Shown here piece by piece: positions 38,490 through 61,396 of a stretch of DNA of 64,000 nt. Each line of letters begins with the position of its first letter. Position 1 is the first letter of the stretch. The position numbers were made by a program, and so were the translations under genes. Location of the stretch: positions 1,568,001-1,632,000 of the forward strand of contig CAWCAG010000005.1 of NCBI GenBank assembly GCA_963793425.1, given 5' to 3'. This stretch comes from an uncultured cyanobacterium. Its GTDB lineage: Bacteria > Cyanobacteriota > Cyanobacteriia > Cyanobacteriales > CAWCAG01. The notes beneath the pieces were generated by a model that saw only the letters and a list, made by a program, of their open reading frames with translations, was not told the DNA's origin and ran no database searches.

Positions 38490-38508
38490 TGATGGGTGTC
38501 ACCCCTCA
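38490..38508. promoter_or_regulatory. Inverted repeat TGAtGGG-TGTCA-CCCcTCA (HetR-type GGG-N5-CCC box)
   Basis: Palindrome in the divergent mscS/hypothetical intergenic region; 14/15 identical to 59083-59097. Confidence 0.5.
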
Positions 38509-38628: not shown

Positions 38629-39978
38629 ATGATGCAATTACAGGGTCTTACCCATACCATAGCTAACCAATATCCCTTAATTATGGATAGCCACAGCCAG
38701 GTGTACCAAGTCGAACAATCTCGGTTAAATAGCTCAGAGGAAAAAGACTATCTTGTTAATCCTCAACAGTTTGTTTGTCAATATTTCCTCAGCAAGGTGA
38801 GAAAATATTCCCCAGAAGAGATGTTAGAGGAGTTTAAGACTCTGTTCGTTGATCGTGCTAGCTCTTCTCAATCGGAAGTACATAAAGCTTTATATAAAAT
38901 TGTTGCTTTACAAGAGGAAGAAACTTTTCGGGAAACTTTAAAACGTTGCTGCTACATCCTGATTAATAACTGGAGTACCCAAAGGCAATACCAATATATT
39001 CAACAATTAGTTGAGCTTTTTGAGTCTCAGCCAGAAAATAAAAAGTGTGTTTCTCTCCACAAAAAAAGATTGCAGCAGTGGTTAGATAATTTTTGCCAAC
39101 TACAAGATTATCAAGACCTCAAAGTTTTTACAGCAAAATTCAATAAAAAAGAGAAGAAAACTTGGAGTGATCGCTACGCAAGTTACTTGTTAGCTTCTCA
39201 GTATACTGATGACAAAAAGTCTCCTGAACAAAAGGAAGCAGCTATGCTTGTTTCTCATCAGCTTAAAGAGCAGTTTAAGCTGGAATTAGCGATGTATACT
39301 GCTCATGCTAATTCCAAGACAGCTAGGGAAAGAAATCGAGAAAACCCTACTGCTTTAGGAGATAAAGTACTAGAGTTACTGCAAAGACTTCTGGTGAAAC
39401 GGAACTCTTTTAGCCATGAAAATTTAGCTAATATTTTCCTCAAACAAACTCAAGGGACACGCTACTACGAGTTTAAGAAGAGTTTAGTTAAGTATTTAAG
39501 TTTTGCTTTTGGTGGTAAAGATTGGACGAGAGATTTAAAGCGGGATCTCAATAAATATGTAAGAACCCTGTATCCAGAATATGATCAAGAAGTTTTGGAT
39601 GATTCTTTGTTACTAAGAACTTGTAATCGCTTAGTAGATTATTTTACCACCCAGAGTCAGGGAGAACCTTCGGTAAAATTTACTCAGTTGAGGGATGGTC
39701 AAAAGTTTATTCCCTTAGCAATAATCCTGTTGAGGATAGTTTTGATTTGTAAACAAAGCTATGTTCATTTAGAATCTCGTTTAGCTTATTTGATTCAGTA
39801 TCACCAAAAAACTGAAGGTAGTAACTGTGAAGAACTAGTTGCTTTTTTGGAAGTTTTAACTATTACTTTAACTATCTATGCAGAGAATGTTCGCTACAAT
39901 TTGCTTAAGATGGCAGCTAGTAGAAACAAGCAAAATGATGATGGTTCTCTAAGGGTATTTTCCCAAGTGCAGTGTTAG
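38629..39978 (+). CDS. Cyanobacterial hypothetical protein, 449 aa
   Basis: Long ORF; LKRCCYILINNW, RYASYLL, NPTALGD, LLRTCNRL motifs typical of a cyanobacterial family. Confidence 0.8.
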   Translation: MMQLQGLTHTIANQYPLIMDSHSQVYQVEQSRLNSSEEKDYLVNPQQFVCQYFLSKVRKYSPEEMLEEFKTLFVDRASSSQSEVHKALYKIVALQEEETFRETLKRCCYILINNWSTQRQYQYIQQLVELFESQPENKKCVSLHKKRLQQWLDNFCQLQDYQDLKVFTAKFNKKEKKTWSDRYASYLLASQYTDDKKSPEQKEAAMLVSHQLKEQFKLELAMYTAHANSKTARERNRENPTALGDKVLELLQRLLVKRNSFSHENLANIFLKQTQGTRYYEFKKSLVKYLSFAFGGKDWTRDLKRDLNKYVRTLYPEYDQEVLDDSLLLRTCNRLVDYFTTQSQGEPSVKFTQLRDGQKFIPLAIILLRIVLICKQSYVHLESRLAYLIQYHQKTEGSNCEELVAFLEVLTITLTIYAENVRYNLLKMAASRNKQNDDGSLRVFSQVQC

Positions 39979-53816: not shown

Positions 53817-54551
53817 TTAAGCTTTGCCTTGTCGCTGTTGTCTCAAAATTGCTCCTAAACCAAAACAACCAAACAACAATAAACCTGCCGCTGCATTAGA
53901 CTCAGGGACTTCTACTCGTCTTTGTTCAAAACGCTGGTCGATGAAGGAAATAAATCCTCTAGAATTACCTTCGGCGATAATATCAATTTGATTCTTAATC
54001 CTAACTTTCTGCAATTCTGAACTAATGCCTTGATCATTAGCTTCTAAGGCAGGATCTTGCAGGTCAGGTATTGCACTTTCTGATGTGGGATTGCTAACAT
54101 TAAGCTTGCCAATAGTGTCACCATTCATGTTCTCAATGGTTTCCGTGACGCTGGTTTGAGCATTTTGTCCGACAAAAGCACCGTTGAAAGCTAATCTCGC
54201 CCCACTAATGACGAAATCGGGGTCTAATACTTCGACATTGTAATCTAAGAGAACTTCTAAGCTGGAGTCGCGCATTGCAGCAAAGCCACTCTGAAAACGC
54301 AATCCAAAAGGATCATCTTCATAAGTTATAACATTAATGCTATCGCAACTGCCTGGTCTAGCCATACCTGAAGCGGAAATTTGGCAAGAGAAATCACTAA
54401 ACTTCTTATCGCCAACAGTAATGCTACCTTCTTCTGTACCGAAGTTAGCTAACAAATCTCCTAAGCTAAAAGTAGCTGAGTGAGCAGGAATGGTTGTTAA
54501 CCCGATTACTGAAGCTGTGGTAAAAGCAATGGTAAATGCGCTTTTTAACAT
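53817..54551 (-). CDS. PEP-CTERM sorted surface protein
   Basis: Signal peptide (PAHS/A), VPES, TM helix, basic tail. Confidence 0.85.
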   Translation of the reverse strand: MLKSAFTIAFTTASVIGLTTIPAHSATFSLGDLLANFGTEEGSITVGDKKFSDFSCQISASGMARPGSCDSINVITYEDDPFGLRFQSGFAAMRDSSLEVLLDYNVEVLDPDFVISGARLAFNGAFVGQNAQTSVTETIENMNGDTIGKLNVSNPTSESAIPDLQDPALEANDQGISSELQKVRIKNQIDIIAEGNSRGFISFIDQRFEQRRVEVPESNAAAGLLLFGCFGLGAILRQQRQGKA

Positions 54552-54629
54552 TATTGGTTAGTCCTTTCCTTAAGTCGTTCTTGTTACTGGAGTTTTTGAG
54601 TTGAAGCCTAATGATTAACTATGAAGCCA

Positions 54630-55391
54630 TTAGGGTTTATTTTGTTGCCGTTGCTTGCGCCAAAAAGAAGCTGTACCGACTAAACCTAAAGCAATTAATC
54701 CTGAAACTGTACCAGGTTCAGGAACTACTTCTTCGTCGTAGGTTTGAGTAATCATGCTGATTGAAGCCGTACCATCAAAAGCAGTGAGGAAAATATCTTT
54801 ACTTACTTCTGCTCTCTTGACTGGTCTGAGAAAATCAAAGTCTCCTTGCAAATCTGGTTCAAAATCCGGGTCGCTAAGGTCTGTTAGTTCATCGGAATTT
54901 GAGACGCTAAATTGCGCCACAATCTCGTCATCACTATCTGGATCACTAATCGTTTCTACGACAGCAGCTAAACCGTCTCCAGTGAAGCCCCCATCAAAAG
55001 CGATTCCAATGCTATCAATCATGCCGTTAGGATCGAGGGATTCGACGGTATAACCAAGTAGTACATCAATAAAAGCATTTTGTCCTGCAAAGAAATCTGC
55101 TTGGAATTTGATGCCTTCACCTAAAGTAATAACTTCTATGTCATCACAACTTTCAGGAGATGTCTCATCTCCAGCAAAAACAATATCACAGAAGAAGCCA
55201 CTAAATTCATGACCTGCGGCTGTTAAGGTTCCATTGCTATCGATCAGACTTTGTAAACTAACAGCCCCAACTGGTGCTGCTAACATCGCTGTTGTGGTAA
55301 CTGCTGTACCAAATATGGTTAATGCACTCTGACGAAACACCAAATTTTTCCCCTTTAAATCCATACTTGTAGATTTTGACCTGTTTACCAA
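54630..55391 (-). CDS. PEP-CTERM sorted surface protein, paralog of the neighbour
   Basis: Signal peptide, VPEPGT, TM helix, WRKQR tail; likely start at ATG 55364. Confidence 0.9.
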   Translation of the reverse strand: MVNRSKSTSMDLKGKNLVFRQSALTIFGTAVTTTAMLAAPVGAVSLQSLIDSNGTLTAAGHEFSGFFCDIVFAGDETSPESCDDIEVITLGEGIKFQADFFAGQNAFIDVLLGYTVESLDPNGMIDSIGIAFDGGFTGDGLAAVVETISDPDSDDEIVAQFSVSNSDELTDLSDPDFEPDLQGDFDFLRPVKRAEVSKDIFLTAFDGTASISMITQTYDEEVVPEPGTVSGLIALGLVGTASFWRKQRQQNKP

Positions 55392-58304: not shown

Positions 58305-58398
58305 TAAAAAAGGAAGTGAAGCTAAGTAATAAGTGATAAGTCATAAGTAATAAGTTTTGATGTAAAGATAATTACTTCAGTTTGTCAGGGTTAAGTCT

Positions 58399-58998
58399 AT
58401 GCTAGTGTTAAATATTAAAAATGTTAAACGTTGTTTATTAAGTCATAAGACAGCGGGCGAGAGAAAGATAGTTAAGGGTATAGCTTATCAAAAAAAGCTA
58501 TACGTTAAGGGAGAATCGTACCCTCTGGATCGTGGTAAAGATGCTCTTCAACGCAGCCGAGAGATTTATTTACAAAACAAAGGCAAAGTAGAGTGTTTGG
58601 TAGTAGAAGGGAAAAAAGGTTTTACTCTTTGGTATCAAAATGATTATGCCAAAGTAGTTAAAAAGTCCAAAACCACTGATGTGGTTTCCAAGATTGATCT
58701 AAGAAAATTAGTGACTAAGATGCGGGATATTGACGGCATATCTATTCAAGATCGCCGTCACAAGCTTAAGGTTTATGACCGCTGTTTCATTGGTAGTGAA
58801 GCGATAGCTTGGTTTAGGAGAAAGTTAAAACTTTCCTCAGAACAAGCAATTAAGTTGGGGCAAAGATTAATGGATGAAGATTGGATTCATCACGTATTAG
58901 ATGAGCAAAATTTTGCTGATGATGATTATTTTTACCGTTTTTATTGGGATGAAACCCCAATAAATAGTGAGGAGCAGTCTGTTACTGGAAAGCTGTAA
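58399..58998 (+). CDS. DEP-domain protein
   Basis: IQDRRHKLKVYDRCFIGSEAIAW...AIKLGQRL...IHHVLDE..F.DD..FYRF. Confidence 0.85.
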   Translation: MLVLNIKNVKRCLLSHKTAGERKIVKGIAYQKKLYVKGESYPLDRGKDALQRSREIYLQNKGKVECLVVEGKKGFTLWYQNDYAKVVKKSKTTDVVSKIDLRKLVTKMRDIDGISIQDRRHKLKVYDRCFIGSEAIAWFRRKLKLSSEQAIKLGQRLMDEDWIHHVLDEQNFADDDYFYRFYWDETPINSEEQSVTGKL

Positions 58999-59260
58999 TC
59001 ATTGATTAGTAAAACTGCAAGTTACCCTGCTTGCCACTGCCTATCTGCCTCAATCAATAACGAAACAGCACCATATCTGGGGTGAGGGGTGATACCCCCT
59101 GGATAAAAAAGAATTAAGAAGATAGTATGTCTAATACGCTAGACATTACTAGTCAACTCTGGTTAAGGACATTATCTTAAGAAGTCAGCTCTTGCTAAAA
59201 ATAGTAGACTTTTGCTTTTTAAAATATGTTCCATTCCATATCTAGCAATTTCAGGGCAAG

Positions 59261-59315
59261 AAAAGAGGGTTATTAAACAACCTCTTAATCAGCTTAATTC
59301 AGATTGCATCTACCC
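59261..59315 (-). ncRNA. Putative sRNA unit 3 (NsiR1-like)
   Basis: TATATT-N7-GTAGATGCAATCTGA...AAGAGG stem CCTCTTTT. Confidence 0.55.
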
Positions 59316-59416
59316 AGAGAAATATAGCATCTTAAACAAAAAGGGTCTACCCCCGTAAAATCTATTTTCTAAAATTGACATGGATTACTTTACTAAACTT
59401 AACCTAGCCTCAAGGC

Positions 59417-59470
59417 AAAAAAAGGAAAGCTGTAAAAGTAAATCTCTCAGTTGTTAAGGTGAATCTACTA
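59417..59470 (-). ncRNA. Putative sRNA unit 2 (degenerate, NsiR1-like)
   Basis: TGCAAT-N7-GTAGATTCACCTTAA...imperfect GAGAG/CTTTC stem, then T7. Confidence 0.4.
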
Positions 59471-59585
59471 ACTAAATTGCAATAAGACAATTTGAAATCA
59501 GGGTCTTTAGCTCTTTCCTACCTTGGGTTTAGGGCATTAGCTACAAGAAAATGGGTCAAATAGTCCTTCATTTTATCTCATAAAG

Positions 59586-59639
59586 AAAAAGAGAGCCGTA
59601 AATTAGTGGCTCTCCCAAATCATCAGGGTGCATCTACTT
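59586..59639 (-). ncRNA. Putative sRNA unit 1 (NsiR1-like)
   Basis: TATAAT-N7-GTAGATGCACCCTGATGATTTGG-GAGAGCC...GGCTCTC-TTTTT. Confidence 0.65.
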
Positions 59640-59691
59640 ATCACATTATAACTATTTCAAAAAGGGGGGCGTAACCCCTTTTTTTTGGAAG

Positions 59692-61179
59692 TTACCCTTG
59701 CAGTTTTTTGCCTAGTAACTGATTAGTCAACTTCGGATCGGCTCTACCGCTAGTTTTCTTCATCACTTGACCTACAAAAAAGCCACGGATTTTTGTTTTA
59801 CCGCTGCGAAACTGCTCTACTTTGTCAGCATTGGCTCCTAAGATTTCATCAATAATTTTTTCGATTTCCGCTGTATCGGAGATTTGTACCAGTCCCTTCT
59901 TCTCAACTAACTCTTGGGCTGAACCACCTTTAACTAATAGTTCAGGTAGAATTTCCTTAGCGATTTTACCGCTAATAGTACCTTTTTCAATCAAACCAAT
60001 CAACTCAGCTAAGCTCTCAGAAGTGAGAGCAATTTCAGTGATATTTAACTTATTATTATTCAAATAAGCAGCAACATCTCCCATCACCCAGTTAGCAGCT
60101 TGTTTAGGATTAGCACCATTTTGCACTACAGTCTCAAAATACTCAGCTATAGTGCGGTCGTCGGTTAAAACCCTAGCATCATAAGCAGAAAGCCCCAAAC
60201 TATTTTCATAATCATGGCGTTTTTTGGCTGGGAGTTCTGGTAATTCAGCTTCCCACTGGGCTAATTGGGTTTGAGAAACTTCAATAGGAGGTAAATCCGG
60301 TTCGGGGAAATAGCGATAATCACTAGAACCTTCCTTAATTCGCATACTTACAGTACACTGGTTACCTTCTTGCCAAAGGCGAGTTTCTTGGAGGATGATT
60401 TCTCCTGTTTCCAATGCTTTGATTTGTCGTTCAATTTCGTAATCAATGGCTTTTTGAATAGCACTAAAGGAATTCATATTCTTGATTTCTACTTTAGTAC
60501 CAAACTCTTTCTGCCCTACAGGACGAACAGAAACATTGACATCACAACGCAAAGAGCCTTCCTGCATATTACCATCGCCAATGCCCAAATAGCGAACAAT
60601 ACGACGCAATTCCTGTCCATACTCTGCGGCTTCTTGTCCCGAACGAATATCCGGTTCAGAAACAATTTCTAATAAGGGAATCCCAGCCCGGTTAAAATCA
60701 ACTAAAGAACAGGTAGAACCAGATAGGCGATCGCTACCAACATGGACTAGTTTACCTGCATCTTCTTCCATATGCAGACGAGTAATGCCAATCTTTTTCT
60801 TGATTGGTTCCTCTCCTTGTTGATCTACTAATTCAATGTCTAGCCAACCATGTTCAGCAATAGGCAAGTCGTACTGAGAAATTTGATAGTTTTTCGGTAA
60901 GTCGGGATAAAAATATTGCTTACGGTCAAATTTGCTATAAGGGGCAATTTGACAATTGAGGGCTAAGCCGGCTTTAACCGCGTACTCTAGCACCTTTTCG
61001 TTTAAAACAGGTAAGACCCCAGGATAACCAAGGCAAATAGGAGAAATATTCGAGTTGGGGGGCTTGCCAAATTCTGTGGATTCGCGACTGAAAATTTTAG
61101 TTTTAGTATTAAGCTGACAGTGGGTTTCTAAACCAATTATCGCTTCGTACTTAGTTTTGGTTGCTGTAGCGCTGGTCAT
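59692..61179 (-). CDS. gatB: Asp/Glu-tRNA amidotransferase subunit B
   Basis: [51 protein letters not shown]. Confidence 0.99.

Positions 61180-61319: not shown

Positions 61320-61396
<77 letters not shown>

Follow-up and report, generated by a model that had tools for sequence, protein, structure and literature searches.

A probable gatB-linked small RNA gene with the NsiR1 seed and a predicted HetR box in an uncultured cyanobacterium

Three seed-bearing units behind gatB

The window, a stretch of 64,000 nucleotides from an uncultured cyanobacterium, contains the gatB gene on the minus strand (59692..61179; NCBIfam gatB, 652 bits), which is the conserved upstream neighbor of the RNA class described below, and a gene with a Pfam DEP domain on the plus strand (58399-58998). 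A tRNA gene with a CAU anticodon (61323-61396, minus strand) is located just upstream of gatB. According to the ORF list, the gap between gatB and the DEP gene holds no open reading frame of at least 50 amino acids. A small peptide in this gap was considered and rejected, as a 23-codon frame across the promoter of unit 3 is shifted, as judged by eye, in the same-genus genome G001.

The sequence-only reading of this gap had proposed three tandem small RNA units on the minus strand. In line with this proposal, the three motifs are present, namely GTAGATGCA at 59637-59629 (unit 1), GTAGATTCA at 59468-59460 (unit 2) and GTAGATGCA at 59313-59305 (unit 3), with the claimed spacing of 169 and 155 nt and, where claimed, TATAAT, TGCAAT and TATATT as −10-like hexamers, each 7 nt 5′ of the seed. 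The host genome contains 99 GTAGAT[GT]CA sites, for which chance predicts approximately 0.0009 same-strand triples in a span of 450 nt across the whole genome, as compared to two observed. The second triple, on contig C7, includes a pair of DIF1-type NsiR1 copies. Thus, the three-motif arrangement is real and far beyond chance. An alignment of the regions downstream of gatB, as the earlier reading had recommended, revealed all three units in G001; directly behind gatB of genome G002, no such units were found.

Unit 1 (59584..59638, minus strand) is likely an intact gene for a small RNA of approximately 55 nt with the NsiR1 seed. It shares 16 identical 5′ bases with NsiR1, and a search with the Rfam model RF02399 gave 28.8 bits and an E-value of 0.01, which lends substance to the NsiR1 label given before, but the score remains below the gathering score of 39. 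Neither unit 2 nor unit 3 matches RF02399 at an E-value of 10, and no other Rfam family suited the units better than NsiR1. The −10 element TATAAT of unit 1 (59645..59650, minus strand), assigned by its sequence and the class consensus TGnTATACT, is predicted to direct transcription from 59638 or 59639. A predicted HetR box, GGG-TTACG-CCC (59667..59677, minus strand), corresponds to the consensus of PMC4649674 and is kept in G001; its center lies at approximately −34, so that it overlies the −35 position. This GGG-N5-CCC palindrome and the one at unit 3, both starting 40 nt before the seeds, had been overlooked in the earlier reading, as had a fourth that is described below. The terminator hairpin of unit 1 has a folding energy of −13.5 kcal/mol (z −4.3). 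Two of 54 bases in the body of the unit are changed in G001, and 74 of the 189 fourfold sites of gatB (39%). With its NsiR1 seed, terminator hairpin, sigma70-type −10 and palindrome, unit 1 is likely a trans-acting small RNA gene.

Unit 2 (59417..59481, minus strand) is an altered paralog with the seed GTAGATTCACCTTAAC. It has no HetR box, a poor −10 and an unstable hairpin, and the notion of three working transcription units is therefore not supported. Its −10-like hexamer is present where it had been placed but lacks the A at position 2; in G001 it reads CACAAT. Similarly, the hairpin with U-tract that had been ascribed to every unit was confirmed for units 1 and 3, but not for unit 2, which forms no stable hairpin (−1.9 kcal/mol, z +0.31). 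Among the class copies listed, 144 distinct ones served as the reference for the hairpins; their median energy is −15.7 kcal/mol, and even the weakest of them reaches −8.2 kcal/mol. Contrary to the view that the terminators are alike in structure only, their arms are also homologous in sequence (GGGAGAG...CTCTC). One of 52 bases in the body of unit 2 differs from G001, and its 19-nt seed had no exact match in metagenome contigs. As judged from its promoter and hairpin, unit 2 is probably weak or silent.

Unit 3 (59258..59329, minus strand) comprises the extended −10 TGCTATATT (matrix score 10.4), the altered seed GTAGATGCAATCTGAA, a hairpin (−9.0 kcal/mol, z −2.1) and a short U-tract. Its minimal HetR box GGG-GTAGA-CCC (59343..59353, minus strand) has a weak matrix score of 3.7 and has lost one C in G001. 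The stretch from box to seed differs from G001 in one of 56 bases, and the hairpin is formed there by different letters (−11.8 kcal/mol), which suggests that it is functional. Unit 3 is likely expressed, with a changed seed. Identity to the NsiR1 seed GUAGAUGCACCCUGAU amounts to 16/16 for unit 1, 13/16 for unit 3 and 12/16 for unit 2. Taken together, the locus consists of one intact member of the class and two diverged local duplicates.

Conservation extends to the spacer that separates units 2 and 3 (4 of 55 bases changed in G001), whereas the other spacers are changed by 24-38%. At 95% identity to G001, the best 180-nt window across units 2 and 3 ranks jointly 6th to 9th among 56 intergenic runs (median 85.6%). 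Selection on these two units is thus not proven, and their conservation may stem from recent exchange or from a general conservation of promoters.

A fourth, near-consensus HetR box without a seed behind it is located at 59083..59101 (core 59097-59087). Its score of 28.4 places it high among the boxes listed for the genome, and in G001 only its N5 spacer differs; it is a candidate relic of a unit or a candidate separate operator. Beside it lies an inverted repeat, ATGTCTA-N6-TAGACAT (59127-59146), both arms of which change in G001. Moreover, a plus-strand TAGTAT 36 nt from the start of this box, similar to the hetZ spacing of 38, could give rise to an RNA antisense to the units.

Kinship with NsiR1 and occurrence of the class

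In the host genome 11 matches to NsiR1 were obtained at an E-value below 0.01, eight of them above the cut-off. Four are strong copies of the class to which unit 1 belongs, unit 1 included, and two of these four pass the Rfam cut-off (41.9 and 39.3 bits). All four share a TAnnnT −10 and a GGG-N5-CCC palindrome that starts 38-40 nt 5′ of the seed, a layout that is also seen at unit 3. The other seven are of the DIF1 type, with TCCGGA or TCCTGA at −35. Six carry the TCCGGA-type motif (C5:1706640, C7:661152, C7:661264, C7:66766, C9:725126 and C9:482752) and the copy at C9:909673 has TCCTGA; one of the six (C7:66766, locus L007, C7:66713-66768) has the altered seed GCAGATGCACTTTGAT, which points to a drift of the seed in the DIF1 class as well. 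These scattered copies have no hetF-like gene next to them, and no HetR box was found at the DIF1-type copies of loci L001-L048. The DIF1-type copies of the host thus possess the same or nearly the same seed as the class, but differ from it by the TCCGGA-type −35, by the absence of a HetR box and by other terminator sequences. The DIF1 motif is read by sigma-HetZ (PMC13342950). In agreement with the earlier reading, none of the three units behind gatB has a DIF1 motif, and no hetF-type gene is adjacent, the neighbors being gatB and the DEP gene.

The 16-nt 5′ seed of NsiR1 from Nostoc/Anabaena sp. PCC 7120 (RF02399; PMC9045159) is identical to that of unit 1 and the class. Both RNAs are approximately 55-60 nt long, have a promoter and an intrinsic terminator for each copy (the hairpin of unit 2 excepted), occur in multiple copies with diverged peripheral ones, and are tied to HetR, in the class by prediction. 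They differ in the promoter, which in the class combines a sigma70-type −10 with a HetR box and in NsiR1 contains DIF1 for sigma-HetZ, in the home locus, which is behind gatB in the class and upstream of hetF for NsiR1, and in the terminator arms (GGGAGAG/CTCTCC versus CCCC/GGGG); in addition, the class has CCCUGAUGAU after the seed. Unlike NsiR1, the class extends to genomes that have hetR but lack heterocyst or nitrogenase genes, and to a small number that lack hetR. With respect to the Rfam cut-off, the DIF1 motif and the hetF array, unit 1 falls outside NsiR1 in the strict sense. NsiR1 arrays are known to contain diverged outer copies (PMC9045159). In Westiellopsis (locus L058), two weak NsiR1-like matches (1263-1317 and 1711-1765) flank a class copy behind gatB, suggesting that a triplet with diverged outer copies exists there as well.

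A scan of species genomes that was keyed on the seed and the terminator arm, and not on the promoter, yielded at least 158 class copies in at least 119 loci, including Nostoc, Anabaena, Scytonema, Leptolyngbya, Spirulina, Lyngbya, Microcystis and Chroococcidiopsis, among others. None of the 158 copies listed has DIF1; the HetR box is perfect in 111 and has at most one mismatch in 149, and a TAnnnT −10 is present in 146. The consensus of the class promoter reads TAGGGGGTG(T/A)CACCCCTCA, followed by TGnTATACT; it is close to the hetP site, and the flanks of the box match that site (CCCCTCA). In 62 of 110 listed loci (108 of which gave a flanking ORF) a gatB-like ORF lies directly upstream. Hence, the region behind gatB is not a different context for NsiR1, as had been supposed, but the conserved home of a distinct sister class. 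The seed is invariant and the terminator is 97.7% paired, a value reached in 12 of 500 shuffles; covariation is thin, with one of six terminator pairs changing on both sides. Each of ten loci tested scored 24-36 bits with the Rfam model, under the cut-off, which may explain why the class was overlooked.

These data suggest a phylum-wide second class, a HetR-box sister of NsiR1, that is apparently undescribed. No published description of a gatB-linked or HetR-box NsiR1 was found, and the primary papers on NsiR1 (2010, 2020) and on the HetR regulon are where one could be mentioned. A review places NsiR1 in heterocyst formers (PMC6596454); however, Table S3 of PMC4734099 gives homologs in 38 genomes, 27 of them heterocystous, and a 57-nt NsiR1-like RNA has been reported in Limnospira (PMC8400943). 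The occurrence of NsiR1 outside heterocyst formers is thus not new. As for PCC 7120, the seed appears in Table S3 of PMC4734099 only once, as NsiR1 itself, the transcription map in PMC10287535 has no unit between thrC and argJ, and none of the 26 selected HetR ChIP peaks given in PMC4192349 is near thrC-argJ.

The predicted HetR box and the possible direction of control

GGG-N5-CCC is the minimal HetR site according to structure and band shift (PMC4649674). The host genome encodes HetR and HetZ. No perfect HetR box was found within 1.5 kb upstream of its hetZ gene, nor was a hetP-family gene, and hence alr3234, found. No nitrogenase was detected, the only two PF00148 proteins being ChlB and ChlN. 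By gene content, we infer that the host neither fixes nitrogen nor forms heterocysts. As no nitrogenase was found, nitrogen step-down, under which the transcripts were to be sought according to the sequence-only reading, may be the wrong condition.

Among 301 genomes, the class pattern is present in 130 of 155 hetR-positive and in 2 of 146 hetR-negative ones, a 2×2 table that overstates the association with hetR because kin among these genomes are not independent. Of the two exceptions, G019 has no box and G051 has one. Conversely, hetR is absent from all five genomes picked for their box-less copies, including two Microcystis and one Chroococcidiopsis; together with G019 and G012, the latter with a decayed box, seven hetR-less genomes thus contain class copies without a perfect box. 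A further hetR-less genome, G449, has one match of the relaxed pattern. In G034, likewise without detectable hetR, the NsiR1 copies (locus L017 and others) have a DIF1-like TCCCGA promoter, and no box-type copy was seen.

It is improbable, in our estimate, that the palindrome is no HetR site, but the terminator hairpin of gatB or a binding site for some other factor that co-occurs with hetR, while the RNA gene itself is real. Such a reading would account for the position of the unit 1 palindrome 14 nt after the gatB stop codon and for its A/T flanks, with which it is called terminator-like and can also pass for a gatB terminator. GGG-N5-CCC is also common, with 639 sites in the host genome, and the assemblies G051, G039 and G011 have box-bearing copies and no detectable hetR; G039 and G011 are fragmented assemblies from families in which other members carry hetR, an explanation that does not extend to G051. 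However, the distance between box and seed is fixed, whereas that to gatB varies from 64 to 682 nt, and the box precedes each copy of the tandem arrays as well as copies far from gatB. In addition, a U-tract is usually missing, and the flanks match the hetP site. Moreover, loci L078 and L186 of hetR-less genomes have gatB upstream but no box, a finding that speaks against a gatB terminator.

HetR binding to the box could repress or activate the RNA. The class box starts 25-29 nt before the −10 (27 nt in 68 of 101 copies). The hetZ and hetP promoters (PMC4649674, PMC13342950, PMC4192349) share with the class the GGG-N5-CCC core, hetP-like flanks and an adjoining sigma70-type promoter. In three Anabaena-type genomes the box of the hetZ promoter starts 38 nt before a TATG(G/T)T −10, consistent with the transcription start that has been mapped 425 nt ahead of the gene. 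The class box is thus 11 nt closer to the −10 than that of hetZ, covers the −35, and would control a small RNA gene rather than a protein gene. HetR ignores the five central bases of its site (PMC4649674); nevertheless, the spacer of the class box is directional (TGACA 36 versus TGTCA 8), and 58 of 157 class copies display a TTGACA-like hexamer at the −35 position. Furthermore, hetR-less lineages have kept the RNA and the extended −10, with the box absent. The location of the box on the −35, the directional −35-like hexamer and the box-less copies in hetR-less genomes favor repression. As far as sequence comparison goes, we consider the chances that HetR represses the class RNA to be about even, and repression to be somewhat more probable than activation.

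In most class copies the −35 and the −10 are separated by 19 nt. This spacing, together with the lack of an effect of antisense depletion of NsiR1 on an alr3234 reporter in vegetative cells of PCC 7120 (PMC9045159), leaves activation open, a possible but rather doubtful reading. HetR would then replace or remodel the −35 contact, and the RNA would be an early direct output in parallel to hetZ, preceding the DIF1 copies in a coherent feed-forward loop. The near restriction of the class to hetR-positive genomes would be compatible with this reading, as would the box lying on the same helix face as that of hetZ, 11 nt nearer, and the 19-nt spacing, which is not the optimum for sigma70. In E. coli, HetR activates both PhetZ and PhetP, presumably via a host sigma factor (PMC13342950), it bends DNA by 34 degrees (PMC4649674), and the repression of alr3234 is confined to differentiating cells (PMC9045159). 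On the other hand, the box of the activated hetZ promoter is upstream of the −35 and not on top of it, a directional −35-like hexamer is retained inside the class box, and box-less copies persist in hetR-less genomes, by eye with no obvious new −35.

Further box-like sequences were observed in the host genome. Within the window, a strong HetR-type box, TGATGGGTGTCACCCCTCA (38490-38508), lies between a divergent 373-aa gene (MscS-channel-like, by eye) and a 449-aa ORF (38629-39978) that had no Pfam or NCBIfam match, making this region a candidate direct HetR target. At C9:228373-228389 (L204:1501-1517) an exact hetP-type 17-mer HetR site is located between a gene that by eye resembles shikimate dehydrogenase and a 196-aa ORF that belongs to no known family. 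In addition, a dispersed and tandem repeat family with GGGG-N5-CCCC in each unit and units of approximately 150, 200 and 310 nt occupies C1:274035-274968, C7:405658-406725 and C9:49148-50774, with single copies elsewhere.

Predicted targets and possible function

NsiR1 covers the start region of alr3234 and thereby blocks its translation (PMC9045159). According to Table S4 of that work, the site in PCC 7120 is AUCAUCAGGG, seven bases before the AUG. This is the exact complement of CCCUGAUGAU, which is present in unit 1 and in 87 of 153 distinct class copies listed, whereas the studied NsiR1 copy reads CCCUGAUAAC in its place (PMC4734099, Table S3). The sequence UCAUCAGGG precedes the AUG in six of seven alr3234-type genes, and the printed PCC 7120 site has the same letters. 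At alr3234-type sites, the predicted pairing energies are −20 to −24 kcal/mol for the class as compared to −16 to −19 kcal/mol for the DIF1-type seed, that is, 4.5-6 kcal/mol better; unit 1 reaches −23 to −26 kcal/mol. Units 2 and 3, whose divergent seeds might, according to the earlier reading, address other targets, lose this predicted pairing (−6 to −10 kcal/mol). Thus, in the Nostoc-type family only, the class RNA is predicted to pair better with the validated alr3234 site than the studied NsiR1 copy. Outside this family, TCAGGG occurs in only one of 21 hetP-like genes.

In the host genome, none of the developmental genes came near the top of 4338 ranked start regions; hetR ranks 3426th for unit 1, and hetZ is not among these regions, which are those of called genes. 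TCAGGG before start codons was not enriched (18 versus 20 and 9 in control windows), and a scan of 151 genomes for CATCAGGG-N5-8-ATG was discarded as noise. The ribosome-binding region of the neighboring DEP gene (58383..58401, plus strand) ranks 17th of 4338 for unit 1 and 9th of 4338 for unit 2. The site is kept in G001, partly kept in G002, and absent at the start of 18 more distant homologs, so that the DEP gene may be a weak candidate target at the genus level.

We assign little likelihood to the reading that the unit acts in cis, as a terminator or attenuator leader of the next gene, or that the seed binds a protein or another RNA. The next gene is argJ in 42 of the 110 listed loci and ffh in another 12, the target searches yielded no conserved mRNA site beyond the Nostoc-type family, and the RNA-binding protein PatR binds NsiR1 (PMC11797042). 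A cis function is, however, difficult to reconcile with the convergent orientation of the next gene here and in Microcystis, with arrays of up to seven copies and additional scattered sites, and with the translational repression exerted in trans by the same seed in Nostoc (PMC9045159).

In our best reading, unit 1 is likely the gene of a trans-acting small RNA that would block translation, and it is predicted to be bound by HetR and, with chances that we judge evenly poised, repressed by it. Housekeeping RNA polymerase would start at approximately 59638 from the sigma70-type −10, and a HetR dimer on the unit 1 palindrome would shut out the polymerase. With little HetR present, or with HetR inhibited, transcription would yield the 55-nt RNA, whose unpaired seed (CCCUGAUGAU and GUAGAUG) would bind target mRNAs across the ribosome-binding region and the start codon, as NsiR1 does on alr3234. 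Once HetR has switched on sigma-HetZ, this seed would come from the DIF1 copies at other places in the genome.

More tentatively, and on balance doubtfully, the gatB-linked HetR-box RNA could be the ancestral NsiR1 and an ancient, direct HetR output shared by filamentous cyanobacteria. HetR would repress it while switching on the sigma-HetZ copies, so that two promoters with opposite wiring would provide one seed, each in a different cell state, and the HetR-box paralog would be the cognate partner that shaped the alr3234 site in heterocyst commitment.

The role of HetR in cyanobacteria without heterocysts is a stated mystery (PMC11298460), and the class represents a candidate direct HetR target in 130 of 155 hetR-positive genomes searched that escapes gene-level RNA sequencing and mostly Rfam. 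Moreover, PCC 7120 may hold a thirteenth RNA with the NsiR1 seed, between thrC and argJ (by synteny with locus L112 expected approximately 200 nt upstream of argJ, near 2,479,700), with better pairing to alr3234 than the studied copies, which, if true, bears on the published NsiR1 experiments.

Elsewhere in the window, two adjacent ORFs on the minus strand (53817-55391) end, as judged by eye, in PEP-CTERM-like sorting signals.
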